64,000 bases of DNA, from IMG/VR virus record IMGVR_UViG_3300011187_000006, positions 1 to 64,000 of that record. One strand, given 5' to 3'. Positions 35,712 through 53,987 of this stretch are shown here, piece after piece (the first letter of the stretch is position 1; every line of letters starts with the position of its first letter). The DNA comes from an uncultured virus (IMG/VR IMGVR_UViG_3300011187_000006) (Duplodnaviria > Heunggongvirae > Uroviricota > Caudoviricetes). A model generated the notes under the pieces. That model saw only the letters and a list, made by a program, of their open reading frames with translations. It was not told the DNA's origin and searched no databases. The translations under genes and the position numbers were made by a program.

Positions 35712-35784
35712 TCGAAGATGTCCGATTCGAACAGCAATTCGATGTCCCAAACATCGTGTGTTACCAGATTACACTACACCCTCG
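35712..35784 (-). tRNA. tRNA-Pro(TGG), imperfect T stem
   Basis: Anticodon arm CGATG-TTTGGGA-CATCG. Confidence 0.7.
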
Positions 35785-35793
35785 CTATACTTG

Positions 35794-35867
35794 TTACCCC
35801 AGTAGGGTTCGAACCTACAATCTCCTGGACCAAAGCCAGACGTGTTAACCAATTACACTATAGAGCA
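35794..35867 (-). tRNA. tRNA-Gln(TTG)
   Basis: Cloverleaf; TCTGG-CTTTGGT-CCAGG. Confidence 0.88.
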
Positions 35868-35873
35868 TTTTTG

Positions 35874-35945
35874 CAGTCCATAGGGGATTCGAACCCCTAT
35901 CTTCCGAGAGACAGTCGGAAATGATAACCTTTACACTAATGGACT
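35874..35945 (-). tRNA. tRNA-Asp(GTC)
   Basis: Cloverleaf; TCCGA-CTGTCTC-TCGGA. Confidence 0.88.
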
Positions 35946-35957
35946 ATTAAAAATTTG

Positions 35958-36031
35958 TCGAGAAGACAGGAATCGAACCTGCTAACTGATGCCTCCAATG
36001 CACCCGTGCTTATAACCTTAGTCACTTCTCG
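35958..36031 (-). tRNA. tRNA-Pro(TGG)
   Basis: CGAGAAG/CTTCTCG acceptor; GGTGC-ATTGGAG-GCATC. Confidence 0.78.
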
Positions 36032-36040
36032 ATTAACTTG

Positions 36041-36114
36041 TTACCCCAGCAGGGTTCGAACCTGCAATCTTCTGGACCAAAACCAGATGTGTTAGCCAAT
36101 TACACTATGGGGCA
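36041..36114 (-). tRNA. tRNA-Gln(TTG)
   Basis: Cloverleaf; TCTGG-TTTTGGT-CCAGA. Confidence 0.9.
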
Positions 36115-36126
36115 ATTTAATATTAG

Positions 36127-36199
36127 CAGCTCTGATGGGAATCGAACCCACTCCGTTACGTGAGACAGACGTACATCTTAACCATTTGACCTCAGAGCT
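36127..36199 (-). tRNA. tRNA-Asp(GTC)
   Basis: Cloverleaf; TACGT-CTGTCTC-ACGTA. Confidence 0.88.
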
Positions 36200-36207
36200 A
36201 TATAAAC

Positions 36208-36246
36208 AAAAAAACTCGGTTAATCTAAAAGACTAACCGAGTTTTT
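36208..36246 (-). terminator. Attenuator terminator upstream of the Asp/Gln/Pro tRNA cluster
   Basis: AAAACTCGGTTAGTC...GATTAACCGAGTTTTTTT on the minus strand. Confidence 0.85.
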
Positions 36247-36264
36247 GTTTTTATTATTTAAATA

Positions 36265-36369
36265 TCAACTTAAATTTAAAACATAGTTAGCACCTTTCGT
36301 ATCAGAATCCTGATCGATATCAACTTGGGGTTGAGGGTTAACTACTATGTTTAAGTTTAAATTTTTCAT
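36265..36369 (-). CDS. Leader peptide MKNLNLNIVVNPQPQVDIDQDSDTKGANYVLNLS
   Basis: 34-aa ORF between promoter and terminator; P/Q/D block matches the downstream tRNAs. Confidence 0.8.
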   Translation of the reverse strand: MKNLNLNIVVNPQPQVDIDQDSDTKGANYVLNLS

Positions 36370-36530
36370 TATGTTTTATATATTAACTTTTATTTCTCTC
36401 TATGGTTATTTATAGACTTTTTTTTTATAAAAGTTTAGAATTATATTATTTCTATGCAAATATAATATAAATAAATGGTTTATACAAGGTTTTTTTTAAA
36501 TTAAAATAATCTTTTTTAATATATAGAGTT

Positions 36531-38756
36531 ATGGTAAATATAAACTCAGATTTTGAGAAAGGAATAATAACTATATCAGATGAATATGACGTGATGGCAA
36601 CTGGTGTTGAAGATGAAACTCCTTATCTAAATTCTATCAATGATGAATACATATTATCTTTTGATAAGTTAGATAATGTGGAAAAGTTCAAAAGATTTAC
36701 ATACGATAGTTTAGGTCTTAAACAAGATAGATTTCTCTTACAATATTATAGAGTTTCCAGAGATGGTAACACATGGTCTGAGTGGTTAGACTTAAATATT
36801 AATATAACCAACTTCCCAGTTGTTGATACACTAGATAGTATGTACCTTGAAATTAAATGGGTGAGAAAGGGAACTTCTGAAATAGGTAGTATAAGAATAC
36901 TAGAATATAAATTAGAAGGTATTATAGATAGACAAGAAATACAATTCAATGGTGAACAAGCATTTTATATAGAGCCAGGTGATTCTAAGATAGTAAAAGC
37001 ACCTTTCATATATAAAGTTTTTAAATTAGAAGATATACAAATCATTAATATAACTAGTTTAGATGACATAAGTATAAAGTATAGATTCTCACAAGATAAC
37101 TCTAGAACTTGGACTGAATGGGAACCATTGACTAAAGAAAATATAACAACCAAAAGGATAAACCCTATACGTTTCTTTGAAATAGAATATCTTATTGATA
37201 ACAAATCGGGATCAGTGTCTAGGTTTCAAGACATAAATTTAGTAGGAGATTTTCAAAATGTTAAGGAAGATTATAAAAAGAGTAATCTATTTGGGATAAG
37301 AGAATGTTGTAAATCCAACCAGATAGGCTATATAAACAGTGAAGGTAAGTATATAATGAATGATAATTTAAACACAACAGGTAACAACTGTGAAGGTGAG
37401 AATGATGCATTTAAACCAATGACAGATACAGACAAGGCTCAGTTATATAATCCTTATGAACAAACACAAGCTACTCAACTATATGAAAAATTAAGTACAG
37501 ACTCTGAACAAGTACTAGGACATAAAGTAACTTATTATGCAACTGATCCAGATGCCAATGGTCAAGACCACACACTTAATGAATATCAATTATATAATGT
37601 TGTGTGTGAGGGAGATTTAAAAATATCTATTGATGGTAATAATTTTCCAGACTCACAGATTAAGATGAACATATTCGATTTAGGATTATTTGATTCAATG
37701 GAAGCACATATAACAAAGAAACAATTTAAGGAAATGTTTGGTGTCCAGAGAAGACCTTCTAAAGAAGATTTTATACATTTTTGTCAAGTTAATAGAATGT
37801 ATCAAGTTGACCATGCTCAACAGTTTAGAAATTTTAATAATGCGGCTGTTTATTATAAACTTATTCTCAAAAAATATTCTCAAAAATCAAATGTTCAGAC
37901 AGATATTCCAGAAATTTCTAATAGCATTAGTGAGTTAACAAAGAATACTACTATTGATGAACTATTTGGAAAGGAGATAGAACAAGATAAGAAGTCAATT
38001 GCTAATAAGAAGGAACAACAACCTTTATCTAGAGATCCTATTAGACTTGAGTATTTTTCTGAAGTTGATAAAGAACTTATTGAAAACTCAACAACCATAA
38101 TATCTAAATATTGTTATGATTTATCAACAGTAGAATATAATGGTTTGGCAGTTCAATACAAGAACTTTAATTCTATACTTGATGTATCTGACAACATATC
38201 ATTACAAGTTTGGTTTAGTATAAATAACTACATAAAAGATGAAGTTTATAAATTTATGGACGTTTATGACAATGGGATTAATAAAGGATGGAAGTCTAGT
38301 CTAAAGAATGATAGCATTACAGTTACTATGAATGAAGAAGAATATATATTTGAGTTAAATGATGGGGAAAGTGATGCATTAGAGGAAGATACTTGGTATT
38401 GTTATGTGCTAAATTTAAACCAACGTCAAAGGTATATTGAAAATTATATATATAAGAGAAATGTAGATATAGAAGATGATGCAAAAATGCTTAATAGTAC
38501 AATTTTGAGAAAAGAGTATTATAATAAACAAGACATAGAACCTATTCAGTATAATATTGATAAAAATCCTAAGATATTAGCATCTGATATGAAGGTTACT
38601 AACATAAGACTTTTTAGTGATGTTATCCCAGAGGAAGCTCATAATAAAGTATTGAATCAATATATATTGGGTGATGACTCTAAATATTTAATATTTGGTG
38701 ATAATGCCAATGATAAAATTTATCTAAAGAATTTTCCATTAAACGAAAATTTCTAA
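36531..38756 (+). CDS. Virion protein with a T4 gp14-like (neck/head closure) domain
   Basis: Central GHKVTYY...PSKEDFIHF..NRMYQV pattern; TTAATATATA upstream. Confidence 0.5.
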   Translation: MVNINSDFEKGIITISDEYDVMATGVEDETPYLNSINDEYILSFDKLDNVEKFKRFTYDSLGLKQDRFLLQYYRVSRDGNTWSEWLDLNINITNFPVVDTLDSMYLEIKWVRKGTSEIGSIRILEYKLEGIIDRQEIQFNGEQAFYIEPGDSKIVKAPFIYKVFKLEDIQIINITSLDDISIKYRFSQDNSRTWTEWEPLTKENITTKRINPIRFFEIEYLIDNKSGSVSRFQDINLVGDFQNVKEDYKKSNLFGIRECCKSNQIGYINSEGKYIMNDNLNTTGNNCEGENDAFKPMTDTDKAQLYNPYEQTQATQLYEKLSTDSEQVLGHKVTYYATDPDANGQDHTLNEYQLYNVVCEGDLKISIDGNNFPDSQIKMNIFDLGLFDSMEAHITKKQFKEMFGVQRRPSKEDFIHFCQVNRMYQVDHAQQFRNFNNAAVYYKLILKKYSQKSNVQTDIPEISNSISELTKNTTIDELFGKEIEQDKKSIANKKEQQPLSRDPIRLEYFSEVDKELIENSTTIISKYCYDLSTVEYNGLAVQYKNFNSILDVSDNISLQVWFSINNYIKDEVYKFMDVYDNGINKGWKSSLKNDSITVTMNEEEYIFELNDGESDALEEDTWYCYVLNLNQRQRYIENYIYKRNVDIEDDAKMLNSTILRKEYYNKQDIEPIQYNIDKNPKILASDMKVTNIRLFSDVIPEEAHNKVLNQYILGDDSKYLIFGDNANDKIYLKNFPLNENF

Positions 38757-38773
38757 AAAAAAAAAGAATAATA

Positions 38774-39409
38774 ATGAAACATTTAAAAAAGTTTAATGAG
38801 GCAATAATAGATTGGAAGTCTGATAATTTAGAAAAGTTTATAAAAGAGGTCGAGGCTGAGTGGAGTATTGGTGTTGATGAATTACAAAGAATTGGTACAA
38901 AAAATGATATAGAGGTTGTTTATTACAGAACATTCTATGATGAATTACCAACTGATAAAATGAGGGAAGATGCACCACCAAATGGTATGAAAGTATTTGG
39001 TTTATTAAACCCAGTTACTAAAAAGCCTAGATTGGTTCTTGCTAATAATGTAAGATATCTTGAGAGTAATGATATCAGTTTTGCTATCCACGTATTAAAG
39101 CATGAAAATATACATTTAAAACAAGGTTTGAGACGACCAGCTGATTTAAATTTTGAATTTTTAGGAAACATTTCAGATCAAAAGGCTTATTTTTCGAATA
39201 AAGATGAGGTAATGGCTTTTTCACAATCTATAACAGACCTAATAATGGAAAGAAATCCAAATGATATAAAAGATGCATTTTCTAAATTAAAAAGTATTGG
39301 TCTATGGATGGGAATATCAAGGGCGGTGAGTGATGATATTAAGAAAAGGTATAAAAAATACATTTATCTTTATTTAGAAAAAGAGTTTGAAGAAATAAAT
39401 GGTAAATAA
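38774..39409 (+). CDS. Hypothetical protein with HExxH motif and MKHLKKFNE N-terminus
   Basis: LKHENIH...EVMAF; possible zincin-like domain. Confidence 0.55.
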   Translation: MKHLKKFNEAIIDWKSDNLEKFIKEVEAEWSIGVDELQRIGTKNDIEVVYYRTFYDELPTDKMREDAPPNGMKVFGLLNPVTKKPRLVLANNVRYLESNDISFAIHVLKHENIHLKQGLRRPADLNFEFLGNISDQKAYFSNKDEVMAFSQSITDLIMERNPNDIKDAFSKLKSIGLWMGISRAVSDDIKKRYKKYIYLYLEKEFEEINGK

Positions 39410-39427
39410 AAATTAATATATAAGAGT

Positions 39428-39859
39428 ATGATAAAAAAATATAAAGACTTTAACAATAAAAAAGTGAGCGAAGCAGTAACTGCAAAAGCTAAAAAGACAG
39501 AGATATTTGGTGTTGATAGAAAACCATCTAATGTTATGTCTAGGGAGGAGCAAGATTTCTATGACTACTATACTAGAAAGAAATTTAGAGGTATGTCAAA
39601 ATATGAACTTAATAGTAAAGTATTCGATTTGGCACAAAGAGATGATGATTTAGCAGTGTTGGCACAATTCTGTTTGCAAATAGAAAGAGAAAGTATCGCT
39701 GGTGATGATTACATCGCTAAAGAAATAGATAAAGGGATAGAAGATGTTATTCCTGTAGTAACAGATAATACTGGTGATGCTGGTAAAGATTTAGATGATA
39801 TATCTTTAGATGATATAGATGAGATAAGGGATGATATAGAAAGTCTTAAAAATAAATAA
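39428..39859 (+). CDS. Hypothetical protein (MIKKYKDF N-terminus)
   Basis: ORF track; TTAATATATA upstream. Confidence 0.55.
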   Translation: MIKKYKDFNNKKVSEAVTAKAKKTEIFGVDRKPSNVMSREEQDFYDYYTRKKFRGMSKYELNSKVFDLAQRDDDLAVLAQFCLQIERESIAGDDYIAKEIDKGIEDVIPVVTDNTGDAGKDLDDISLDDIDEIRDDIESLKNK

Positions 39860-39871
39860 AACAAATAATAT

Positions 39872-39912
39872 AAAAAAGAGGGGATATAATTAATTATATC
39901 CCCTCTTTTTTT
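39872..39912. terminator. Bidirectional terminator ending the tRNA operon
   Basis: AAAAAAGAGGGGATATAAT/ATTATATCCCCTCTTTTTT. Confidence 0.85.
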
Positions 39913-39913
39913 G

Positions 39914-39999
39914 TACCGCTAGTTGGACTTGAACCAACAATAAGATTTCTCTAACTTGGATATGAGCCAAGCACAATTACCACATCTGTTCATAGCGAT
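39914..39999 (-). tRNA. tRNA-Met(CAT) (or Ile2) with a long variable arm
   Basis: CTTGG-CTCATAT-CCAAG; variable region TTAGAGAAATCTTAT. Confidence 0.75.
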
Positions 40000-40003
40000 T
40001 TAG

Positions 40004-40093
40004 TACACCAGGTGGGATTTGAACCCACGTTGTTCACCTCAAAGGGTATCAGATTTTAAGTCTGATGCGTTTCATCCACTTCGCCACTGGTGC
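40004..40093 (-). tRNA. tRNA-Leu(TAA)
   Basis: TCAGA-CTTAAAA-TCTGA; long variable arm. Confidence 0.88.
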
Positions 40094-40103
40094 ATTTTTT
40101 TAG

Positions 40104-40177
40104 AGCTGACAGAGGGATTCAAACCCACAACTTTTTGATTACAAATCAAAATGCTCTACCAATTGAGCTATGTCAGC
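40104..40177 (-). tRNA. tRNA-Thr(TGT)
   Basis: TTTGA-TTTGTAA-TCAAA. Confidence 0.85.
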
Positions 40178-40184
40178 ATATTAG

Positions 40185-40256
40185 AGTACCTAGAGGGATT
40201 CAAACCCCCGTACGATGGGTTGCAGCCACCTACCTAAATCACTCGGTCATAGGTAC
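40185..40256 (-). tRNA. tRNA-Cys(GCA)
   Basis: GGTGG-CTGCAAC-CCATC; U discriminator. Confidence 0.85.
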
Positions 40257-40262
40257 ATTTTG

Positions 40263-40336
40263 TAGTTCTGGTTGGATTCGAACCAACGACTTCTTCCTTG
40301 TAAGGGAAGCATTCTGAACCCCTGAATTACAGAACT
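40263..40336 (-). tRNA. tRNA-Val(TAC)
   Basis: CTTCC-CTTACAA-GGAAG. Confidence 0.88.
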
Positions 40337-40345
40337 TTTTATTTG

Positions 40346-40426
40346 TACCCTAGATAGGACTCGAACCTATATTTTCAGCTTCCAATTACCCTTAATTGTT
40401 TAGAAGACAATCGGGACTACTAAGGC
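40346..40426 (-). tRNA. Non-canonical tRNA-Arg(TCT) lacking a D arm
   Basis: GCCTTAG/CTAGGGT acceptor; ATTGT-CTTCTAA-ACAAT only ~8 nt after it; long variable region; normal T arm. Confidence 0.7.
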
Positions 40427-40436
40427 ATTTATTTTG

Positions 40437-40526
40437 TACCAGTGGTCGGACTCGAACCGACAATGTTTACCTCTTGGGTACTAGTTCCTAAGACTAGCGT
40501 GTTTCATCCAATTTCACCACACTGGT
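40437..40526 (-). tRNA. tRNA-Leu(TAG)
   Basis: CTAGT-CTTAGGA-ACTAG; long variable arm. Confidence 0.88.
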
Positions 40527-40532
40527 ATTTAT

Positions 40533-41273
40533 TTATATTTTACTATGTATTTCTCTATGACAATTAGAACATAATAAAATACATTTATCAACTTCTTTTT
40601 TTAACCTTTCAAGTGACCAAGACTTTCCGCCGATACTAAAATCTTTTTCATTAGGATCTAAATGATGAAATTCTAAAGCACTTATACATTTAGAATATCC
40701 ACATTTTTCACATTTACCACCTTTATATTCTAGTAGTTCGACTTTCTTTCTTTTTCTCCAAGATACTACATATATTGCTTTTTCTTTCTTTATTTCATCT
40801 TTTGTCATTTTTTTTCTTTTTTTAAGTGTTACATATTTTCGTATAGTACGAAAAGAATGTCCCATTTCTTTACTAACTTTCTTAATACTACCCAACTTAT
40901 CATATTGTGTTCTTATTTCATCTATCTCTGTTTCTGATAATTTACCATATTTACCACAATTTACCAAATCGTGCATTCTACATATTTTAGATATGGACTT
41001 TATTGAAATATTTGTTTTTTCTTTTATATCAGAATAACTTAATTTATTTTTCCTTAATTTTATTACCTCACCAATATCATAGTTTTCTATTAAAAATGAT
41101 TTATCTTTAAACTGTTTCTTATTTTTTTCAATTACATTTTTCAATTTTATTTTATTATTAGATTTTATTTTAGAGCAATGATAAGATACTGTTGATTTAG
41201 AACAGTTTAATTCTTCACATATTGTTTTATAGCTATGTCCCATTTTTCTTAGTTCTAATATTCTTTCTTTCAT
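40533..41273 (-). CDS. HNH endonuclease with N-terminal HTH repeats, inserted in the tRNA cluster
   Basis: CEKCGY...LEFHH...LCSNCHREIH. Confidence 0.88.
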   Translation of the reverse strand: MKERILELRKMGHSYKTICEELNCSKSTVSYHCSKIKSNNKIKLKNVIEKNKKQFKDKSFLIENYDIGEVIKLRKNKLSYSDIKEKTNISIKSISKICRMHDLVNCGKYGKLSETEIDEIRTQYDKLGSIKKVSKEMGHSFRTIRKYVTLKKRKKMTKDEIKKEKAIYVVSWRKRKKVELLEYKGGKCEKCGYSKCISALEFHHLDPNEKDFSIGGKSWSLERLKKEVDKCILLCSNCHREIHSKI

Positions 41274-41344
41274 ACTATTTATTTTTTATAGTATATATAA
41301 ATATTAGAACTCACCCCTAAACATACATGTCATTTATCTAAAAG

Positions 41345-41426
41345 TCGGCACAGTAGGACTCGAACCTACGTTTTCAACTTACCAACTACAGTTCTCCAAG
41401 GTATCAGCTTGGGCTGGTATGTGCCG
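41345..41426 (-). tRNA. Non-canonical tRNA-Ile(GAT) lacking a D arm
   Basis: CGGCACA/TGTGCCG acceptor; CCAAG-CTGATAC-CTTGG 7 nt after it; long variable region; normal T arm. Confidence 0.7.
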
Positions 41427-41434
41427 ATTATTTG

Positions 41435-41508
41435 CTCCTCCCACGAGATTTGAACTCGTAACCTTCTGATTAACAGTCAGATGCATCTGCCAGTTGAGCT
41501 AGAGAGGA
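41435..41508 (-). tRNA. tRNA-Asn(GTT)
   Basis: TCTGA-CTGTTAA-TCAGA. Confidence 0.9.
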
Positions 41509-41520
41509 TTGTAATATCTG

Positions 41521-41605
41521 TACTAATGATGAGATTTGAACTCATATAATCATTTCTGATTAAAGGATTTTGAATCCCTCGTGTCTACCATTCCACCACA
41601 CTAGC
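41521..41605 (-). tRNA. tRNA-Leu(CAA)
   Basis: AGGGA-TTCAAAA-TCCTT; long variable arm. Confidence 0.88.
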
Positions 41606-41612
41606 ATAAAAC

Positions 41613-41648
41613 AAAAAAACCCCTAGAATTTTCATTTCTAGGGGTTTT
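41613..41648 (-). terminator. Attenuator terminator upstream of the 10-tRNA cluster
   Basis: AAAACCCCTAGAA...TTCTAGGGGTTTTTTT on the minus strand. Confidence 0.88.
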
Positions 41649-41671
41649 AGTTATTTGTATTTTTTATTTCA

Positions 41672-41791
41672 CTATGTCATAAGATGAAATTTATTAAATA
41701 CACTAGAACCCCTAGATGGTCTATTACATAACATAATATTCACCACATTGAGCGTTAAGTTTCTATTTGTATTTAGGTTTAAATTTTTCAT
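41672..41791 (-). CDS. Leader peptide MKNLNLNTNRNLTLNVVNIMLCNRPSRGSSVFNKFHLMT
   Basis: 39-aa ORF; codons 3-24 use only amino acids of the downstream tRNAs. Confidence 0.82.
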   Translation of the reverse strand: MKNLNLNTNRNLTLNVVNIMLCNRPSRGSSVFNKFHLMT

Positions 41792-41936
41792 CGCTATTAT
41801 ATATTAAATTTTATTTCTTCCTTTGGTTATTTATATTCTTTTTTTACTAAAAGTTTAAATTATTTTAGGTTCTGTGCAAATATATAACTAATATTTGTTT
41901 CTCACAAGTGTTTTTTAAAAAGATTTAAATTTATTT

Positions 41937-42158
41937 TCATATGAGTTCTAATTCAACTTCACTATCATGACTAAACGTATAGTATTGGTCATGGTTTAAG
42001 TTTATATCAATCCCACTTTCGATAGTATCTATACGCCTATCGGATTTATCGCTTACATCTAGTCGCTTAACAACACTATCATTGTCATAATCCTTAATCT
42101 CGATATACTTAAAAAGAGGTACATTAGTATCTATAATAGAATTATTGTCTTTATTCAT
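41937..42158 (-). CDS. Small hypothetical protein
   Basis: ORF track. Confidence 0.5.
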   Translation of the reverse strand: MNKDNNSIIDTNVPLFKYIEIKDYDNDSVVKRLDVSDKSDRRIDTIESGIDINLNHDQYYTFSHDSEVELELI

Positions 42159-42223
42159 TGTTTTATTATTATTATTGTGTAAATATAGAAGCTAATAGCC
42201 AAAAAATTTATAAAAACATTTAA

Positions 42224-42490
42224 CTAGGCTTGTGATTCGCTTTGTTCTTTTGTCCATTGTGTGAAGTGTAGCATATATGCTGGTTCAAATCCGTTTGTTT
42301 TAAGTGGGTGGTCGCTATTCATTATTACATCAATCGCACTTTTTGGTAGTATTTTAGCCTTTTGGTCATCATTTAATTTGCTATCCAAGTACTTGTGAAA
42401 TTCAATTCCGATTTCATCAATATCCTCATTGCTTATTTCGCCAATCTCAGAGAAGTTCTTTCTGATGAAGTATCTAAATGTATCTTTCAT
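42224..42490 (-). CDS. Small hypothetical protein
   Basis: ORF track; co-oriented run. Confidence 0.5.
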   Translation of the reverse strand: MKDTFRYFIRKNFSEIGEISNEDIDEIGIEFHKYLDSKLNDDQKAKILPKSAIDVIMNSDHPLKTNGFEPAYMLHFTQWTKEQSESQA

Positions 42491-42493
42491 AAT

Positions 42494-42841
42494 TTAAAAG
42501 TTGTTTGTTATTAATTTGGTCTGTAATTTCTTATGTCTTGCCAATCTCCAGTTCTCTAAATACACCATATCCTTTTTAGTCCTCCAAGAGTAACCACTTT
42601 GAAACCCAGTATTAATATTAATTAAGCCAAGGTTTTTAATAAGTTCAGTTGCTTGTTCACATGATATCGTTAGCTTTATCTCGGTATTTTGAGAGTCTTT
42701 TCTAATATATTTGACTATTTTCCAAGAATTGTCTACTTTCCACTCAGCAAGCATCCATAAATGATTCCACTTGTCTGTGACTAAGTCAATATCTATATCG
42801 TTAATATCAGTATATTTGAATGTTCCTTTTGTTATTTTCAT
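42494..42841 (-). CDS. Hypothetical protein
   Basis: ORF track; co-oriented run. Confidence 0.5.
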   Translation of the reverse strand: MKITKGTFKYTDINDIDIDLVTDKWNHLWMLAEWKVDNSWKIVKYIRKDSQNTEIKLTISCEQATELIKNLGLININTGFQSGYSWRTKKDMVYLENWRLARHKKLQTKLITNNF

Positions 42842-42842
42842 T

Positions 42843-43037
42843 TTAATACGTGCGTTTATTAATTAAATAATTTTCTTCTGCTAGTATTCTTAGGTTGTGT
42901 TTCAAATCAGATAAATTACAATCAATTACTTTACCAAACTTTGCACCACCTATTCTACATCCAAACTTTAGATTGCCAAAGTATGCAGTTCTAAGTGTTG
43001 TATTTATGTACAAGGTATACATTTTTCTAATTAACAT
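42843..43037 (-). CDS. Small hypothetical protein
   Basis: ORF track; co-oriented run. Confidence 0.4.
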   Translation of the reverse strand: MLIRKMYTLYINTTLRTAYFGNLKFGCRIGGAKFGKVIDCNLSDLKHNLRILAEENYLINKRTY

Positions 43038-43049
43038 AGTTCATTTTAT

Positions 43050-43325: not shown

Positions 43326-43432
43326 TAGCCTATTTTCTGTAGCTACTAGGAAAACATTTAGAACTACTGACAATATCCCATTAGTTTCTTTTTTATTAGA
43401 TTCCATAGTGTATAGTTTTATATTTATTACAT

Positions 43433-46146: not shown

Positions 46147-46147
46147 A

Positions 46148-46522: not shown

Positions 46523-46532
46523 AGTGTATTAA

Positions 46533-46949
46533 TTATTTTAAATTTAATTCTTTTAAGTGAGTTAGTTCAACATTTCTTAGCCCTAGGTTATTTCTATAGT
46601 AGTATCTTGATGTAAGACTTGTGTTTATCCTAAATGGTTTTGTAGTTGGTATTATATTAACAAAGTCAGTCGAACTAATTTTGTTAATAATAAATTGAAA
46701 ATTTTTGTAGTTATTCTCACTAACTAGGTTTATACACTTCCTTGCACTTTCTGAACTTCTAAAAAATAAGGCAAAGTATATATTATTTTGGGGTTCGATA
46801 TATCCCCTAGGTCCATTATAGTAAAGGGTCTCTAATGTTTCTGTTTGATGAGACAACACTTGAGCAATCCTTAATCTTCTATATTGTACAAGTGTGTACA
46901 TTTCTATATAATATAGATATCTAATTCGTGTCTTATTTTGATTATTCAT
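46533..46949 (-). CDS. Hypothetical protein, paralog of 46942..47379
   Basis: Shared YIE(M/V)Y...R..(R/K)(I/L)..V and NIY...F patterns. Confidence 0.5.
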   Translation of the reverse strand: MNNQNKTRIRYLYYIEMYTLVQYRRLRIAQVLSHQTETLETLYYNGPRGYIEPQNNIYFALFFRSSESARKCINLVSENNYKNFQFIINKISSTDFVNIIPTTKPFRINTSLTSRYYYRNNLGLRNVELTHLKELNLK

Positions 46950-47379
46950 TAATGTTGTCTATTTCCCTACACTTTAATGTTTCCATATATGCTTTCTCAT
47001 CACGCACAATGCCTATATTAATTATGTATAATCCCATATCCCATTTTGAACACTCTGGTACTTTTAGCGGTATTAATTTTATAAACTCTAATCTATTAAT
47101 TTCGATTATTTCCATAGTTAGATTCTTTTTATCACACTTTTCTTTCATAGCAGCCTTTTGGTTGATAGCACTTTGTTTCTTCTTCCAAAAGCTAGAAAGA
47201 TATATATTCTTTATAGAAGTATTTCTACTTAGTGTATTAAAATAGGTGGGTCTTATGTTATTATCTAATCCCATTACTTTATTTAGTTTTTTACTCCTAA
47301 GTGCTGCTATATCATATACTTCAATGTAGAAAAATGTATTTAATCTATAACGTTTTCTTTTCTTTTTAAGTTCTGCCAT
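46942..47379 (-). CDS. Hypothetical protein
   Basis: ORF track; paralog of 46533..46949. Confidence 0.5.
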   Translation of the reverse strand: MAELKKKRKRYRLNTFFYIEVYDIAALRSKKLNKVMGLDNNIRPTYFNTLSRNTSIKNIYLSSFWKKKQSAINQKAAMKEKCDKKNLTMEIIEINRLEFIKLIPLKVPECSKWDMGLYIINIGIVRDEKAYMETLKCREIDNINE

Positions 47380-47438
47380 AACTAATTACATATATCTATT
47401 TAATTCCTAATTTTTTTAATCTGTTTTTTCTAATTTCA

Positions 47439-47675
47439 CTAATTGGAGTTTTCACTAATTGGAGTTAGCTTTATCTCTCTCATTTCGTACCTTATGCCAT
47501 TTTGTGAAATTACATATGAATCTATAGGATAATAAGCTTTATTTATAAATTCTTGTATAGTTAAACCTACTGGCTCAACGAGTTTTATTATCTTATCAAA
47601 TTTAGGATTCTTATCATATCCAGACATGTATACAAAATGCATACCAATAAGGCTATCTTCTTTATTAAATTTCAT
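47439..47675 (-). CDS. Hypothetical protein truncated by a 16-bp tandem duplication
   Basis: TTCACTAATTGGAGTT occurs twice at 47435-47466. Confidence 0.55.
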   Translation of the reverse strand: MKFNKEDSLIGMHFVYMSGYDKNPKFDKIIKLVEPVGLTIQEFINKAYYPIDSYVISQNGIRYEMREIKLTPISENSN

Positions 47676-48581
47676 CTATGAATACAATTTGTCTAGTTTG
47701 ACAGATCGATTATGTGTCTTTATAATGGATTTTTCTTCACCATCTAACCATTCTGATTCTGATTCTAAATCATTAATGATTAGATTATTTATTTCTTTAT
47801 TAAATTTGTATCTATATAAATCATCACCTTCTTGTGATCCATATAAGCTTGGTCTCAATAATACTTTCAATTCATTTGTCATCGTTGAAATAAGATTATA
47901 TTGTTTAATTATATAGTCTTTAAATATTAAATCAATTGGTAGCAATTCAAACATATTATATTGCCATAATGATTGAATATATGTCTTTTTTCTTGTAGTT
48001 TGTTTTCTTATTAAATCAAAAAACTCTTTCGAAATTTCTTCTGTAATATCAGCTTCTGTCATACTTTCAATATATGATATTCTTTCTGATATGTTTGTTA
48101 TGTTATAATCATCAATACCATCTAAAATACTTTTTATGTAAGCACCTCTAGTATATTCTTCGGGGTTGTCAATATTTATATCTAGGCTTCCATTGTCTAT
48201 GTAGTCAATGACTTCTGTTCTAAAAAAAGATATGAACAAATTGTCAATTATGTCTGTGTTTTTAACCTCTTCATCATAAGTTCTACTACTAGAATGTATT
48301 AGATTAAGTAATTCATATATATTTATGTTAAAGAATTTTTCTAACATTTCTACATTTATGTCATTTTCTATATGTCTTAATCTTCCATAGCTATCATATC
48401 GACCATTTATTGGAAACCCAAATGGTGAGAAGAACTCTTGTGTACCACTTTCTGATACAATTATGTTCTTATGTGAATTGAAATTTTCACTTCCACCAGG
48501 GACTAATATCTGAATACTTGCTCTATCGCCGTCACTTATGACTGTATTAGATATTGAACATATTATATTAAAACTACCCAT
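47676..48581 (-). CDS. Hypothetical phage protein
   Basis: MGSFN..C..S and GRYDSYG motifs; C-terminal RSVKLDKL. Confidence 0.6.
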   Translation of the reverse strand: MGSFNIICSISNTVISDGDRASIQILVPGGSENFNSHKNIIVSESGTQEFFSPFGFPINGRYDSYGRLRHIENDINVEMLEKFFNINIYELLNLIHSSSRTYDEEVKNTDIIDNLFISFFRTEVIDYIDNGSLDINIDNPEEYTRGAYIKSILDGIDDYNITNISERISYIESMTEADITEEISKEFFDLIRKQTTRKKTYIQSLWQYNMFELLPIDLIFKDYIIKQYNLISTMTNELKVLLRPSLYGSQEGDDLYRYKFNKEINNLIINDLESESEWLDGEEKSIIKTHNRSVKLDKLYS

Positions 48582-48843
48582 TTTTACATTTTTTATGATG
48601 AATAAAATCCTTGATACCGATGTATAAGGTCAAGATGCCTACTAATGCCCAAACTATTGTAAAATATGGACTGTGTAGTAAATCTGAAAATAAACCACTG
48701 TGATTTGTTGGTGTGTCTTGTAGTTCTATAGATGCCTTTACAAGCATAAAAGATTGAACAAATTGAAATATATGAAGGCTAGCATGTAGTATGTTAAGTA
48801 CGCCAAGTCCTATTATAATAAATGATTTCTTAAAAGTTTTCAT
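48574..48843 (-). CDS. Two-transmembrane-helix protein
   Basis: Two hydrophobic segments. Confidence 0.55.
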   Translation of the reverse strand: MKTFKKSFIIIGLGVLNILHASLHIFQFVQSFMLVKASIELQDTPTNHSGLFSDLLHSPYFTIVWALVGILTLYIGIKDFIHHKKCKNG

Positions 48844-48902
48844 ATTATTTTTTTACAAATATACAAATAAAAAATATTATACAAGTATTTTATGGTATTT
48901 AA

Positions 48903-49130
48903 TTAATCTACTTCGTAATCCCAAAAATCAATACCTATTGTAACTTCTTCTTGATAGCTATTTCTTAGCTTATCTAGCAGATGTTCTTTAATATCATTTT
49001 TAAAATCAGATACATTATTTTCTATTTGTAATTCGTTCAACCTATTATAGTCATTGCAAGAATTAATCTTTACTTTAACTTTAAGTGTTACCTCGATTTC
49101 CTTATCTATTTTATAGTTTCTATTTGACAT
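48903..49130 (-). CDS. Small hypothetical protein
   Basis: ORF track. Confidence 0.45.
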   Translation of the reverse strand: MSNRNYKIDKEIEVTLKVKVKINSCNDYNRLNELQIENNVSDFKNDIKEHLLDKLRNSYQEEVTIGIDFWDYEVD

Positions 49131-49139
49131 TATTTTGTT

Positions 49140-50375
49140 TTAACTATCAACAAATTCTTGTTTGATTATTTTTATTATCTTCTCAATAGTCACATCCTCT
49201 AAATCTGTCATATTTACAAGTTCACTAAAACCATAAGATAGTAATGATTTAGCAGTATCTATACCAGCTTTTTTAAATTCATTTATTACCCATAAATCAA
49301 CTTCATCAGAAAATTCCATAAGATCTATATCTTCCTCTGTAGCTTGCTCATCATTTATAAGATTTATTTCTAGACCAGTAAGTAAGCTAGTTAATCTTAT
49401 ATTAGAACCTTTCTTACCAATAGCCTTACCAATATCTTCACCATTTAAATGAACGTCAGCTTTACCATCTTCTACCTTTATAAATTTAACAACGGCTGGT
49501 TTTAACGACCTAGTTATATATAAATCCATATTATTTGTGTAGCTTATGATATCTATACTCTCACCATTTAGCTCTCTAGTAACTGCCATTATTCGACTTC
49601 CTCTACTACCAACACAAGTTCCAACAGGATCAATTCTATCATCATATGTTTCCACTGCTACCTTAGCTTTAATACCAGGTACTCTAACTATGTTCTTTAT
49701 ATTTATTAGACCATCGAATATTTCAGGTATTTCTTGTTCCATTATTCTTTCTAGAAACTTACTTGATGTTCTTGATGCAATAATGTATGGCTTATTGTTT
49801 CTAATTTCAGCTTCTTCTACCACAAATGATATTGTATCACCTTTTCTGTAAAACTCACCAGGTATCTGATTATCTTTTGGTAAACAAATTTCAATACCCT
49901 CATCATCTAGTAATATAACCATATTTCTTTTTATGTGATGGACTTCGGCATTGAAAATATATCCAATCATATCTTCAAACTTCTCTATTGTTGATTTATT
50001 TTCGTAGTCTTTTATTCTAGCCTTTAGATTCTGTCTTAAACTTAATATAGATCTTCTTCCTAATTCTGATATTTTGAATTCTTGTGGATATTCTTCCCCT
50101 ATTTCAAAATCTGACTCCACCTTAAGAACTTCTGAAATTTCTATTTCAGTATTGTGGTTTTCAACCTCGCCATCTTGTACAACGATTTTGTTTTGCCATA
50201 TTTCTAAATCTCCGTTATCTGGGTTTAGAATTATATCAAAGTTTTCATCTGTATCATATTTTTTTCTAAACTCAAATCTAAAAACAGAGTCTAGGATTTC
50301 CATTATCTCTATTTTATTAATCATTTTGTCTGACTTAAGCTCAGTAAATGAATCTATAATTGATGTGTTATTCAT
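49140..50375 (-). CDS. nusA: Transcription termination/antitermination factor NusA
   Basis: S1 and KH domains: EIPEIFDG, RIDPVGTCVGSRGSRI and AIGKKGSNIRL. Confidence 0.95.
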   Translation of the reverse strand: MNNTSIIDSFTELKSDKMINKIEIMEILDSVFRFEFRKKYDTDENFDIILNPDNGDLEIWQNKIVVQDGEVENHNTEIEISEVLKVESDFEIGEEYPQEFKISELGRRSILSLRQNLKARIKDYENKSTIEKFEDMIGYIFNAEVHHIKRNMVILLDDEGIEICLPKDNQIPGEFYRKGDTISFVVEEAEIRNNKPYIIASRTSSKFLERIMEQEIPEIFDGLINIKNIVRVPGIKAKVAVETYDDRIDPVGTCVGSRGSRIMAVTRELNGESIDIISYTNNMDLYITRSLKPAVVKFIKVEDGKADVHLNGEDIGKAIGKKGSNIRLTSLLTGLEINLINDEQATEEDIDLMEFSDEVDLWVINEFKKAGIDTAKSLLSYGFSELVNMTDLEDVTIEKIIKIIKQEFVDS

Positions 50376-50632
50376 ATATTTAATTTATTATTTTTTATTT
50401 TCTATTTTCTAGTATATGCTTTTATTAAAATTGATTGTTTGTGATATTAGAAGTTTATCATAAGTAGCACTTACACACTTATACTTACAAACAGATAATA
50501 AGTTGTATTTTTTATATAATTAATACTACTCATCTCATAATTAAATTAATAACCTACTCTGCACAACAATGTATAAAATTACCTAATTTTTAAAGTCCCT
50601 TATTTAATAGATATTTGGGACATTATCATAGT

Positions 50633-50854
50633 CTATTTTTCTGTTTTTACACTTTTTCTAGTATTTAAATCCACTTTAAATATTTCTCCACACTTACAAG
50701 TATGGGGTGAATGTCTGTTTACACCTACTAGTATATCATATGGGCAGTTTTCTAAATCAACTACTTCTAAAAAACCATCACCACTCTTACTTTGAAAATC
50801 TTTCTTCTCACCACATGAAGGGCAAGGTACTTTTACTGTATCGTATAGTCCCAT
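50633..50854 (-). CDS. Small Zn-ribbon protein
   Basis: MGLYD...CPSCG..FQSKSG...CKCG. Confidence 0.55.
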   Translation of the reverse strand: MGLYDTVKVPCPSCGEKKDFQSKSGDGFLEVVDLENCPYDILVGVNRHSPHTCKCGEIFKVDLNTRKSVKTEK

Positions 50855-50985
50855 AATTTATTTTTAAATAATTATCATTTCATAATCAGAATTAAGTAAA
50901 GCACTATTATTCTCATTAAGATATCCTCTCATTGTGGTTGCTATAGTCTTTCTTAATTTCATTGTTTTTCTCTTATATATAAATA

Positions 50986-51414
50986 TCAGTCATTCAATAA
51001 CATTTGAATATTTAAGTATCTTTTGTTTTCTTTCTTCATCATCCATTGATCCTTACAACTATTTATTGATGGGTGTAAACCATTATATTCTTCTTTGTTT
51101 ATCTTATTTTCATCAATATAAGGAATAATTTTATTAACTACAGACGTTATATTAGCTTCCCTTAGTGGAACTGAATTTAATTCTAGAATTATATAATATA
51201 TTGATGTTGTATTTTTATCAGTAACACCCCATATTTTAGTCCAAGTATCCAACTTAACACTTTTGGTTATATTATTATTTTCAATATCAGTTCCTATATG
51301 GAGTATCCACTTTTCTCTAAGATAGCTTGGTGATAGATGTAATATATCAATACCACATTCAGTGCTAATATTGAAATAAAAGTTAATTATATTATTTGTT
51401 TGAATTGTGGTCAT
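50986..51414 (-). CDS. Hypothetical protein
   Basis: ORF track. Confidence 0.5.
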   Translation of the reverse strand: MTTIQTNNIINFYFNISTECGIDILHLSPSYLREKWILHIGTDIENNNITKSVKLDTWTKIWGVTDKNTTSIYYIILELNSVPLREANITSVVNKIIPYIDENKINKEEYNGLHPSINSCKDQWMMKKENKRYLNIQMLLND

Positions 51415-51542
51415 ATAGATTTGTATTATTAAGTGATTAGTGTTGTTAATTCATCTAAAAACATGCAACATCATGATATATAGTAAAATAATATTATAAT
51501 TTTTCTTTCTTTTAGAATTCTTACTATGCAAATATATACTAA

Positions 51543-52298
51543 TTAAATTACTCTTAAAGACTTTATCCAATTTTTAACATTAAAAGATGGACATGCTTTT
51601 GATGAAAATTCATTATGTCCATGAAATGTTATTCTAGGTAATTTATGTTTAAAAGCTCTATAAATGGTTTCATAGACATCCTTTTGCTTTTTAGTTATAT
51701 TATCCAATGCTCTACCATTTCGGTCAACACCACCAATATATGATATATTTATAGTAGTAGAATTGATACCACGAACACCATTAGAGACTCTGTTAAAGTC
51801 TAGTAGTTGATTCCAAGTTCCATCTGGCCTAACAATTATATGATAACCTGGTGAACGCCACCCAAGTGTATTCTTCCAATAATTCACAATGGCAGATACA
51901 GTAGCTTTTTGAGATGTTGCAGTACAATGGAAAACAAGCCTTTTTATATTCCTAGTAATATCACTAGATTCTATTAGGTTTATAAGTTCCCTTGTACTAG
52001 GGGACAAAGGTTGTGTTTCCTCAATATCTTCTACACAGAACATACACTCTGGATCAGATACAGAATCTTCTTCGTTTAGATCAACATCGTAAATTGGTCT
52101 TATTCTATTCTTATCGTTTTTTACTAAAACAGACCAAGTATTAGGACCAACTATACCATCTACGCTTAATCCATTATCTCTTTGAAAATTCTTCAAAGCT
52201 TTCAAAGTGTTAGGACCAAATATACCATCAGGTTTTAGTCCTAACAAGTTTTGTAAATCCTTAACTTTTTCTCCTCTACTTCTAAATCTTATAATCAT
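51543..52298 (-). CDS. Endolysin: peptidoglycan-binding domain plus N-acetylmuramoyl-L-alanine amidase (T7 lysozyme-like)
   Basis: DGIFGPNT/DGIVGPNTW; FHCTAT, GYH, YIGG and GHNEF..KACPSF. Confidence 0.9.
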   Translation of the reverse strand: MIIRFRSRGEKVKDLQNLLGLKPDGIFGPNTLKALKNFQRDNGLSVDGIVGPNTWSVLVKNDKNRIRPIYDVDLNEEDSVSDPECMFCVEDIEETQPLSPSTRELINLIESSDITRNIKRLVFHCTATSQKATVSAIVNYWKNTLGWRSPGYHIIVRPDGTWNQLLDFNRVSNGVRGINSTTINISYIGGVDRNGRALDNITKKQKDVYETIYRAFKHKLPRITFHGHNEFSSKACPSFNVKNWIKSLRVI

Positions 52299-52591
52299 AA
52301 TAATATGTACATTTTCTCTATATATATATTATTAATATGTTTCTAAGAAATCTCCATTAATGAATCACCACCATAAACTATCACATCTACTGAATTTGTT
52401 AGCTTAGAAATCGGTGACATGTCCACAATATCAACAACTCACCTATCTATAGTGAAGCTTTGATATTTTCTAGCCTGATGATTTTTAGACAACTTCTCCA
52501 ATTCATCTGATGCAAATTTAGTAATTACTCCTCTCTCTATCTATCTCGCACTCAAATCTTCTATAATTATTGTTTTTTTTTAATTAAGCTG

Positions 52592-52669
52592 TGGAGGATA
52601 TCGGATTTGAACCGATGTATGACACAGCTTGCAAAGCTATCGCTTACGACCAGACTGAGCTAATCCCCC
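52592..52669 (-). tRNA. tRNA-Ala(TGC)
   Basis: G3:U70 acceptor pair; ATAGC-TTTGCAA-GCTGT. Confidence 0.85.
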
Positions 52670-52677
52670 CATTAATG

Positions 52678-52751
52678 AGCAAATGATAGGATTCGAACCT
52701 ACAACTTTCTGAATGGAAATCAGACACTCTAGCCAATTGAGCTACATTTGC
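52678..52751 (-). tRNA. tRNA-Gly(TCC)
   Basis: TCTGA-TTTCCAT-TCAGA. Confidence 0.87.
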
Positions 52752-52762
52752 ATTTTATATCG

Positions 52763-52836
52763 AGCAGGTAATCGGGATCAAACCGATTCTATTCTAGCTT
52801 GGAAGGCTAGTGCACCATCACTTATGCGTTACCTGC
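52763..52836 (-). tRNA. tRNA-Gly(TCC)
   Basis: CTAGC-CTTCCAA-GCTAG. Confidence 0.8.
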
Positions 52837-52844
52837 TTATTTTG

Positions 52845-52918
52845 TTGGTATGATGGGTATCGAACCCACTATCTCATGGATATAAGCCATGTGCTTTTAC
52901 CATCTAAGCTACATACCA
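52845..52918 (-). tRNA. tRNA-Ile(TAT)
   Basis: CATGG-CTTATAT-CCATG. Confidence 0.85.
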
Positions 52919-52932
52919 ATTTATAATAAAAT

Positions 52933-52961
52933 AAAAAACCCAGTCATTTCTGACTGGGTTT
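52933..52961 (-). terminator. Attenuator terminator upstream of the Ile/Gly/Gly/Ala cluster
   Basis: AAACCCAGTCA-GAAA-TGACTGGGTTTTTT on the minus strand. Confidence 0.88.
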
Positions 52962-52984
52962 ATGATAATTTATAATTAAATTAA

Positions 52985-53059
52985 TTACATAACAATTCCC
53001 AGCCAATGAGTTTTCCCTTTGCCTATCGCTATTATTGCTATGTTATTAATTGTTCTCAT
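52985..53059 (-). CDS. Leader peptide MRTINNIAIIAIGKGKTHWLGIVM
   Basis: 24-aa ORF; ATA GCA ATA ATA GCG ATA GGC AAA GGG block. Confidence 0.8.
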   Translation of the reverse strand: MRTINNIAIIAIGKGKTHWLGIVM

Positions 53060-53106
53060 AATTGTTATATTACACTATATATTAAAAGTTTACTCTCCCT
53101 CTTAAA

Positions 53107-53325
53107 TTAATCTGTATTTTCTAAAATTTTAATCTGTATTTCTGTTCCTTCATAATCAAATCCTCTCTGATAGGTAGGATTTAGATAGTCTTCAAAACTA
53201 TTAAAAGATACTTCTCTAAATATCCCTTTATGGTAAGTTTTCAGTCTTGGTCGATTACCTCGATGTAACAAATCATGTTTTATGTCGAATTCGCCAATTC
53301 CTTCTATCTCTATTTTTAAAACCAT
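53107..53325 (-). CDS. Small hypothetical protein
   Basis: ORF track. Confidence 0.5.
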   Translation of the reverse strand: MVLKIEIEGIGEFDIKHDLLHRGNRPRLKTYHKGIFREVSFNSFEDYLNPTYQRGFDYEGTEIQIKILENTD

Positions 53326-53578
53326 AATAATTTATTTTTGTAATTCAATTTCTTTTAATATCCTTTTCGGATAAAAAAACGAAAAATGTGTCTTAGCTTG
53401 CTCAACATTGTAGGCTTTAAATACACATTTATGTATTTTTTTACCAGTCTTATAAACATATACACACTTAAAATCTTGTATTGTGTTTTTTTCCATTTAA
53501 AAGCTTTTTAAAATTAAATAATAGGCAAATATAAGCATTATATTATTATAATCCTATTTTAAACAATATTTAAATTAG

Positions 53579-53651
53579 TACTCCGTGGGAGAATTGAACT
53601 CCCGTTACCAAGTTGAAAGCCTGGGGTCCTAGTCCACTAGACGAACGGAGC
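53579..53651 (-). tRNA. tRNA-Glu(TTC)
   Basis: CCAGG-CTTTCAA-CTTGG. Confidence 0.88.
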
Positions 53652-53661
53652 ATGTACTAAG

Positions 53662-53744
53662 TGGGCGTAGTGGGACTCGAACCCACAATACCTTTCGGAA
53701 TCGGTTTTACAGACCGACATGACTACCTGTGCCATATTACCCCC
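53662..53744 (-). tRNA. tRNA-Tyr(GTA)
   Basis: TCGGT-CTGTAAA-ACCGA; variable arm CC-GAAA-GG. Confidence 0.82.
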
Positions 53745-53757
53745 ATATTTTTAAAAC

Positions 53758-53794
53758 AAAAAACCCAGTCTATATTACTAGACTGGGTTTTTTT
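53758..53794 (-). terminator. Attenuator terminator upstream of the Tyr/Glu tRNAs
   Basis: AAACCCAGTCTA...TAGACTGGGTTTTTT. Confidence 0.88.
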
Positions 53795-53810
53795 TATACT
53801 ATAATTTAAT

Positions 53811-53894
53811 TTACATTATAGACATCAAAAGACTAGCCGAGCGTTTTCGTTCAGATTCTTCATAATAATATTCTATGTTAGTAAAAGTATTCAT
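53811..53894 (-). CDS. Leader peptide MNTFTNIEYYYEESERKRSASLLMSIM
   Basis: 27-aa ORF; GAA TAT TAT TAT GAA GAA TCT GAA block. Confidence 0.82.
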   Translation of the reverse strand: MNTFTNIEYYYEESERKRSASLLMSIM

Positions 53895-53914
53895 TTTATT
53901 TATTTATTTATTTG

Positions 53915-53987
53915 TAGCGGGAGTTGGACTCGAACCAACGACCTCTAGGTTATGAGCCTAGCGAGCTACCTACTGCTCTACCCCGCG
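53915..53987 (-). tRNA. tRNA-Met(CAT), initiator-like
   Basis: CGCGGGG start with unpaired position 1:72; CTAGG-CTCATAA-CCTAG. Confidence 0.88.

Follow-up and report, generated by a model that had tools for sequence, protein, structure and literature searches.

Why phages carry tRNA genes has been debated for decades, and, to our knowledge, the regulation of these genes is almost unknown. How such genes might be switched on is the question raised by a 64,000-nucleotide stretch of DNA from an uncultured virus of the Caudoviricetes (positions 1 to 64,000 of IMG/VR record IMGVR_UViG_3300011187_000006), referred to here as the window. It covers the opening 64 kb of a 78.7 kb contig from a huge lake phage, has a G+C content of about 29%, and contains 19 tRNA genes called by ARAGORN, every one on the minus strand. 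Four tRNA operons of the window, named A, C, D and E, lie behind a short open frame and a terminator hairpin. We read these units as ribosome-mediated (leader-peptide) transcription attenuators that would give feedback control of tRNA supply, and, judging from sequence comparison and modelled folding, we put the probability of this reading at roughly 0.75.

Leader Frames and Terminators Precede Four tRNA Operons

An earlier note on this DNA had described, on the minus strand, frames of 24–39 amino acids followed by a U-tailed hairpin and then by tRNA genes, and this order was confirmed in units A, C, D and E (Table 1). When the leader frames of the window were shuffled, they stayed open in just 2–12% of trials (292/5000 for frame A), and in unit C the leader is the sole sense frame of at least 10 codons. 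The first tRNA begins 66–67 nt past the leader stop in all four units. Between the two lies a G+C-rich hairpin of −13.0 to −15.2 kcal/mol, which starts 23–27 nt past the leader stop and is followed by 6–7 T. The T-run ends 7–14 nt before the first tRNA, leaving no room for a separate promoter downstream of the hairpin, a possibility that the earlier note had considered. Behind the terminators, there are solely tRNA genes and one inserted HNH homing-endonuclease gene, and no enzymes of amino-acid supply or charging.

The claim that every tRNA cluster has its own leader held for the four units only. The cluster at 39913–40526 has none: it belongs to operon C as its distal portion, and the HNH gene separates it from the proximal tRNAs. 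The HNH insert is missing from a sister contig of the same phage and from some metagenome contigs. The sister contig has a tRNA-Leu(TAA) at the place of the HNH gene; among DNA contigs of the four metagenome runs that were compared, one (run X4) joins 40533 directly to 41339.

The nearest named records are two uncultured phages, LR745206.1 and LR756502.1 (635 and 642 kb), with 66–69% DNA identity over a neighbouring gene and with 61 and 50 Rfam tRNA hits, respectively. Each of them carries eight units of the same design (16 in all), of which four are homologous to A, C, D and E. In the four extra units, a His/Phe/Trp leader is followed by tRNAs for these three amino acids; a leader of nine codons, four of them Lys, is followed by three or four Lys tRNAs; Arg and Ser tRNAs come after a Ser/Arg leader; and three or four Gln tRNAs come after a stretch of Gln codons. 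The leader frames are open in 20/20 units of the three genomes, intrinsic terminators follow in 18/20 (4/4 in the window), and the distance from leader stop to hairpin is 22–36 nt throughout. Seven more homologues of unit C, found with a degenerate pattern derived from leader C in IMG/VR contigs of 55–508 kb, all show the layout of leader, terminator and tRNA genes.

Codon Blocks of the Leaders Match the tRNAs Behind Them

In each leader, one block of codons is enriched in the amino acids that the following tRNAs carry. We scored this match against the amino-acid composition of 81 long frames of the contig, with the tRNA sets taken from ARAGORN calls only. The best windows within the leaders held 9/12 in-set codons in A (Pro/Gln/Asp), 19/21 in C (Asn/Leu/Thr/Val/Met/Cys), 7/7 in D (Ile/Ala/Gly) and 7/8 in E (Glu/Tyr), and random peptides of equal length and composition reached these scores in 0, 0, 0 and 1 of 3000 trials, respectively. 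All 14 kinds of tRNA amino acid present in the four operons occur in the leader of their own operon, as do 20/21 and 18/18 in the two relatives.

When every leader was compared with every tRNA set, the leader's own set gave the highest score in 4/4 rows of the window matrix, and in 7/8 and 7/8 rows of the matrices of the two relatives. The true pairing of leaders with tRNA sets was the single best of 24 in the window and the single best of 40,320 in both LR745206.1 and LR756502.1. Clearly, each leader of the window matches its own tRNAs and not those of the other clusters, as the earlier note had stated, and the concordance extends to related phages when set against shuffled pairings.

The match can also be followed at the level of codons. 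All four Ile codons of block D are the one read by the Ile(TAT) tRNA of the operon. Across the 20 units, 145 of 163 in-set block codons are readable, under strict wobble rules, by the anticodons of their own operon, with 133.3 expected from genome codon usage (standard deviation (sd) 3.5). Several blocks among these units use G-ending codons, which make up 0–12% of their synonymous families in the genome and are readable by the U-starting anticodons of the operon; such codons may have been chosen as slow, sensitive ones.

Four degenerate tRNA-like elements (35958–36031, 40346–40426, 41344–41432 and 52763–52836, all on the minus strand) occupy gaps of about 90 nt in the arrays. Three of them reach the Rfam tRNA threshold as weaker matches (35958–36031, 40346–40426 and 52763–52836), none is called by default ARAGORN, and with introns allowed and thresholds lowered the calls for all four were spurious or ambiguous. 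At least the element of operon A is kept in a relative. Their hand-read anticodons (Pro, Arg, Ile and Gly) fit the leaders but are unconfirmed by ARAGORN, and were excluded from the main statistics; with the Arg and Ile anticodons accepted, block C would be 22/22.

The Terminator Arm Is Predicted to Have an Alternative Partner in the Leader

Attenuation requires that a translating ribosome decide between two structures. We folded each of the 18 units having a terminator as far as the loop of that terminator, setting a ribosome footprint of 30 nt on each codon in turn, and measured the stability gained from pairing of the 5′ arm of the terminator; 200 shuffles of the spacer per unit gave the chance level. 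In nearly all 18 units, the 5′ arm was predicted to be paired (5–15 kcal/mol) while the A site was in or before the block, and to be free (about 0) a few codons past it, mostly remaining so up to the stop codon. The predicted partner is, in most units, a leader segment starting 1–5 codons past the block. The antiterminator value was reached by at most 2/200 shuffles in 11/18 units; in the window, unit C (0/200) and unit D (1/200) stand out. In units A, D and E without a ribosome, the leader is predicted to fold on itself and to leave the terminator free.

Covariation supports the alternative helix of unit C. In an alignment of ten unit C homologues, the terminator helix was paired in 98.8% of cells, with five pairs changed on both sides, and the antiterminator helix was paired in 91.1% of cells, with three pairs changed on both sides; one homologue lies out of register in the alignment and counts against the helix. 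The covariation score of the antiterminator was reached by 0/500 shuffles, and sliding the partner by 1–3 columns as a control reduced pairing to 29–60%. Three versions of the terminator stem occur among these homologues, and for each version the leaders carry a segment that fits it: duplexes of a leader with its own stem average −16.5 kcal/mol as compared with −9.2 kcal/mol for cross-group duplexes, and 0/34 of the latter were as stable as the leader's own. Leader C of the sister contig is identical to that of the window, so that no strain-level covariation could be used.

Taken together, these results show the anatomy of the units, the match between codons and tRNAs, their conservation, and alternative helices that are predicted and, in unit C, covary. 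Conserved open frames, specific codon blocks, intrinsic terminators and a predicted alternative pairing make up the architecture of ribosome-mediated attenuation, as had been recognized earlier.

Signals Upstream of the Leaders

The earlier note had placed a promoter motif before each leader. The motif TTAATATATA lies just before leaders A, C and D; leader E has none of its own and is located behind a tRNA-Met gene that carries the motif, on the same strand. The window contains 22 TTAATATATA sites as compared with 3.4 expected. As 13 of the 22 sit within 24 nt before frames of at least 100 amino acids, many merely 4–7 nt before the ATG, the motif is a general gene-start signal of the phage and not one specific to attenuators, and leaders A, C and D share this start context with ordinary genes. 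It is probably a promoter that yields very short 5′ ends, that is, leaderless or nearly leaderless mRNAs. A second candidate, TAnnTTTG, occurs farther upstream in units A and C and before the tRNA-Met (Table 1), and we take it to resemble the Bacteroidota −7 promoter element. A sigma-70 promoter scan gave 112 sites as compared with 138.5 in shuffled sequences, and was uninformative for this phage.

A Proposed Feedback Switch and Its Alternatives

In the mechanism that we propose, transcription would start upstream of the short frame, and ribosomes would translate the frame at once, meeting in it a block of codons that specify the amino acids carried by the tRNAs behind. If the cognate charged tRNAs were scarce, decoding would slow down, and the ribosome would wait on the block, leaving the leader segment 3–5 codons downstream free to pair with the 5′ arm of the terminator; this antiterminator pairing would block the terminator, and the tRNA genes would be transcribed. 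With fast decoding, the ribosome would cover the segment, the terminator would form 7–14 nt before the first tRNA, and transcription would stop. As many as eight amino acids would be sensed simultaneously by leader C. From the layout and the predicted pairings, we infer that the leaders are translated, that ribosomes stall on the blocks, and that shortage opens the switch. As the product, tRNA, would relieve the signal, slow decoding, each operon would be self-regulating.

The tRNA-Met gene without a leader of its own precedes leader E in the window phage and in both relatives. By hand reading, its positions 1 and 72 are unpaired, which is a mark of initiators, and this tRNA is therefore presumably initiator-like. 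An initiator is not sensed by elongation in the A site, which would fit the position of this gene outside the switch. Somewhat less confidently than for the attenuators themselves, we favour the view that the units form a class of product-sensing attenuators in huge phages of Bacteroidota-type hosts, in which each tRNA operon is a closed feedback loop opened on shortage only, with the initiator tRNA left outside.

If true, phage translation would be sustained when host tRNAs are ill-suited to AT-rich codons or are destroyed by tRNA-targeting defences, either of which might be the natural cause of scarcity; host anticodon nucleases as the trigger are a speculation. If the switches work as read, tRNA supply would be controllable by direct feedback from decoding speed, the logic of attenuation would extend from enzymes to the decoding molecules themselves, and the leaders would be a sequence-readable record of the codons that limit the phage in its host. 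A multi-amino-acid test frame joined to a terminator may also serve as a compact sensor of tRNA availability.

Several observations weigh against attenuation by the leaders. As to the start of the leaders, no Shine–Dalgarno sequence was found there, and there are two candidates for the promoter; since both are upstream of the leaders, the logic of the switch is independent of which is used. As to the codons, the excess of readable codons is modest, about 3 sd. For the Pro/Asp leader of both relatives, the Gln set gave a higher score than the leader's own set; this leader also contains Gln codons, and the Gln operon is located just downstream. Moreover, a natural variant at 36321, present in contigs of two lake or salt-lake runs, changes an Asp codon of block A to Asn. 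As to the structures, no T-run follows the hairpins of the two Lys mini-leaders in the relatives. The complementarity of the distal frame to the 5′ arm of the terminator, reported in the earlier note for three leaders, stood the test against shuffles in C and D, was marginal in E (reached by 21/200), and was not above shuffles in A (167/200); for the homologues of unit A in the relatives, the value was reached by 0/200 and 32/200. In unit C and its homologues, the antiterminator is predicted also when no ribosome is present (−8.9 kcal/mol) and when the ribosome has reached the stop codon (−7.9 kcal/mol), so that their "off" state would have to be kinetic. Finally, a switch of this kind would respond to amino-acid starvation too, where extra tRNA would not help.

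Some of these points would also suit leaders that are translated and control the terminators but report the general capacity or timing of translation, for example by shutting off the operons once ribosomes are loaded or through a link to a phage NusA-like factor, with the codon blocks being secondary. A NusA homologue, SmpB and a sigma factor are encoded near the operons, unit C is predicted to read through without a ribosome, and the codon-level excess is modest; these points speak for such a sensor. However, the pairing tests (best of 24 and of 40,320) link the blocks to their own operons rather than to the others, and a sensor of general translation would not need blocks, yet these are kept in the relatives despite differing peptides. 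We consider this explanation unlikely.

The frames might instead encode small functional peptides, or stay untranslated, with the hairpins being leaky terminators or processing or insulating elements and the tRNAs being made by constitutive readthrough. The N-terminal residues of the leaders are alike across units, and TTAATATATA precedes ordinary genes too, both of which are consistent with that. But the peptide sequences as a whole are poorly conserved, in contrast to the composition of the blocks, the spacing and the pairing with the terminator arm, and this reading leaves unexplained why a small protein should be made up of the amino acids that the downstream tRNAs carry. This makes such a function of the frames very improbable.

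It is also conceivable that the leader RNA senses tRNA directly, like a T-box, and that the block is a row of specifier codons pairing with anticodons, free of ribosomes. The output logic would be the same, as tRNA status would control the terminator, and the codons match the anticodons. Nevertheless, no T-box or other cis-regulatory family of Rfam was found at E up to 1 in 34000–56000, and an ATG in a gene-like context, open frames in 20/20 units and a stop codon 22–36 nt before the hairpin would be needless in an RNA that is not translated; direct sensing is thus highly doubtful. That short AT-rich frames and terminators happen to precede tRNA genes by chance is hardly credible, for although several single leaders of the relatives are weak (their scores are equalled by random peptides in as many as 129/3000 trials), chance is contradicted by the joint pairing tests, by conservation in three genomes and seven more homologues, and by covariation.

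Comparison with Known Attenuators and Phage tRNA Arrays

Leader-peptide attenuators are classical in enterobacteria, where they control the trp, his, phe and leu operons and, as multivalent forms, thr, ilvGMEDA and ilvBN. Like these, the phage units consist of a short frame with a cluster of regulatory codons followed by an intrinsic terminator; the antiterminator would share the 5′ arm of the terminator and be freed by a ribosome waiting on the regulatory codons; and in units A, D and E a leader hairpin is predicted to free the terminator when the leader is untranslated. Unlike them, the phage units would regulate tRNAs and not enzymes, so that the product would be the sensed molecule. Further differences are that up to eight amino acids are represented in one leader, that the units are phage-borne and lack a Shine–Dalgarno sequence, with the start 6–16 nt after the gene-start motif of the phage, and that for unit C default termination is not predicted.

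Attenuators of aminoacyl-tRNA synthetase genes include E. coli pheM-pheST and the predicted leuS and trpS leaders. In these too, leader-peptide attenuation of a component of the translation apparatus reads the supply of charged tRNA, but they control the charging enzyme, whereas the phage units would control tRNA genes, several species together. For amino-acid and aminoacyl-tRNA synthetase operons, PMC4833913 cites a comparative study. T-box riboswitches resemble the phage units in that tRNA status chooses between terminator and antiterminator upstream of translation-related genes; they differ in binding uncharged tRNA directly, without a translated frame. A T-box-like RNA was rejected as a candidate here on the absence of an Rfam match in 34000–56000.

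The closest systems are the multivalent thr and ilv leaders and pheM-pheST. What would be new here is the class of target, as tRNA genes encode the sensed molecule, the breadth of up to eight amino acids per leader and the phage carrier, while the mechanism itself would be classical leader-peptide attenuation. Full-text literature searches, with subscription journals outside their coverage, found no description of attenuators or leader frames before tRNA genes, in agreement with the earlier note, which knew of none. In the opening part of PMC10264068, phage tRNA arrays are viewed as a means of codon compensation or of countering host defences that target tRNAs. That article addresses why phages carry many tRNA genes, and thus a setting where on-demand synthesis of tRNA would be useful; the same part concerns tRNA sequence and function and not regulation by leader frames.

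Bacteroides phage crAss001 serves as a contrast and not as counter-evidence: its tRNA array comes right after a plain promoter and has neither a leader nor a terminator. The layout is thus not universal and not a by-product of having a tRNA array. In Prevotella phage Lak-B1 (MK250020.1, 8063–8285), a 37-codon frame and a T-tailed hairpin lie directly before tRNA-Trp and a scattered array. In this frame, 22/36 residues are amino acids carried by the nine ARAGORN-called tRNAs that come next (p about 0.002 in one look, which makes it a lead and not a result), and the layout may extend to Lak megaphages.

Features of the Window, Its Genome and Neighbouring Genes

Table 1. Positions of the tRNA operons and of the signals and leader elements associated with them in the window. 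Codons are numbered from the leader ATG.
Feature	Position	Strand	Basis
Operon A tRNAs: Asp, Gln, weak tRNA-like element (35958–36031), Asp, Gln, Pro	35711..36199	-	ARAGORN + Rfam
Terminator A: stem 36241..36215, T-run to 36208	36208..36241	-	fold + independent scanner
Leader frame A: 34 codons + stop	36265..36369	-	ATG frame, script extraction
Candidate antiterminator segment A (codons 26–30), weak	36282..36294	-	predicted pairing with terminator 5′ arm
Putative sensor block A (codons 12–23): 9/12 Pro, Gln or Asp	36301..36336	-	
Unit A TTAATATATA motif, 7 nt before ATG	36377..36386	-	
Unit A TAnnTTTG box, host-type (Bacteroidota-like), 87 nt before ATG	36457..36464	-	
Terminator right after last tRNA of operon C	39872..39911	-	independent pattern scanner
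Operon C distal: Leu(TAG), tRNA-like 40346–40426, Val, Cys, Thr, Leu(TAA), Met	39913..40526	-	ARAGORN + Rfam
HNH homing-endonuclease gene with HTH domains, inserted in operon C	40533..41273	-	
Operon C proximal: Leu(CAA), Asn, tRNA-like element at 41344–41432	41344..41605	-	ARAGORN
Terminator C: stem 41644..41620, T-run to 41613	41613..41644	-	fold + independent scanner
Leader frame C: 39 codons + stop	41672..41791	-	ATG frame, script extraction
Putative antiterminator segment C (codons 26–29)	41707..41716	-	predicted pairing, covariation in 10 homologues
Putative sensor block C (codons 3–24): Asn, Leu, Thr, Val, Met, Cys, plus Arg and Ile	41720..41785	-	
Unit C TTAATATATA motif, 6 nt before ATG	41798..41807	-	
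Unit C TAnnTTTG box, 85 nt before ATG	41877..41884	-	
Operon D tRNAs: Ile(TAT), weak tRNA hit 52763–52836, Gly(TCC), Ala(TGC)	52591..52918	-	ARAGORN + Rfam
Terminator D: stem 52958..52939, T-run to 52933	52933..52958	-	fold + independent scanner
Leader frame D: 24 codons + stop	52985..53059	-	ATG frame, script extraction
Putative antiterminator segment D (codons 19–21)	52998..53005	-	predicted pairing
Putative sensor block D (codons 7–15): Ile, Ala, Gly	53015..53041	-	
Unit D TTAATATATA motif, 16 nt before ATG	53076..53085	-	
Operon E tRNAs: Tyr(GTA), Glu(TTC)	53578..53744	-	ARAGORN
Terminator E: stem 53787..53764, T-run to 53758	53758..53787	-	fold; missed by independent scanner
Leader frame E: 27 codons + stop, begins 20 nt after tRNA-Met	53811..53894	-	ATG frame, script extraction
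Candidate antiterminator segment E (codons 20–22), marginal	53829..53837	-	predicted pairing
Putative sensor block E (codons 8–15): 7/8 Glu or Tyr	53850..53873	-	
tRNA-Met without own leader	53914..53987	-	ARAGORN
TTAATATATA motif, 17 nt before tRNA-Met	54004..54013	-	
TAnnTTTG box upstream of tRNA-Met	54045–54052	-	

The sister contig (G001), 141.5 kb in length, is rated as about 20% complete, and the phage genome is therefore probably several hundred kb long. Long frames are open under table 11, and an alternative genetic code was rejected on this ground. A search with a neighbouring gene of 741 amino acids as the query yielded five loci, two of the same phage and three about 54% identical over that gene. 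At two scanned loci of the latter kind, which are mutually identical, there was no tRNA within 6 kb and hence no leader, and in the 24 kb region of LR756504.1 that was examined, two tRNA calls and no leader-like unit were found.

Several genes near the operons encode proteins linked to transcription or translation. A NusA homologue with NusA_N and KH domains (49140–50375, minus strand) lies between the tRNA operons; as NusA modulates hairpin pausing and termination, this protein could tune the switches. SmpB, the ribosome-rescue partner of tmRNA, is encoded at 57812–58246, a YqeY-like protein at 55695–56111 and a sigma-70-family factor at 59076–59681, all on the minus strand; no tmRNA was found in the window by ARAGORN.

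Directly downstream of operon A is a gene for a cyclic-phosphate receiver domain (34745–35125, minus strand). The window also contains genes for an AAA_33/KTI12-like kinase (33176–33694, minus strand) and for a 2H phosphoesterase of the LigT/Acb1-like type (14685–15218, plus strand). Our guess is that these RNA-repair-type domain genes fit a setting of tRNA damage and repair. Farther away, Cas6-like (20993–21697) and Cas3-like (23566–25815) genes on the plus strand represent a CRISPR-Cas system, or the remnant of one, carried by the phage; at 7204–8896 lies a TnpB/IS200 pair.

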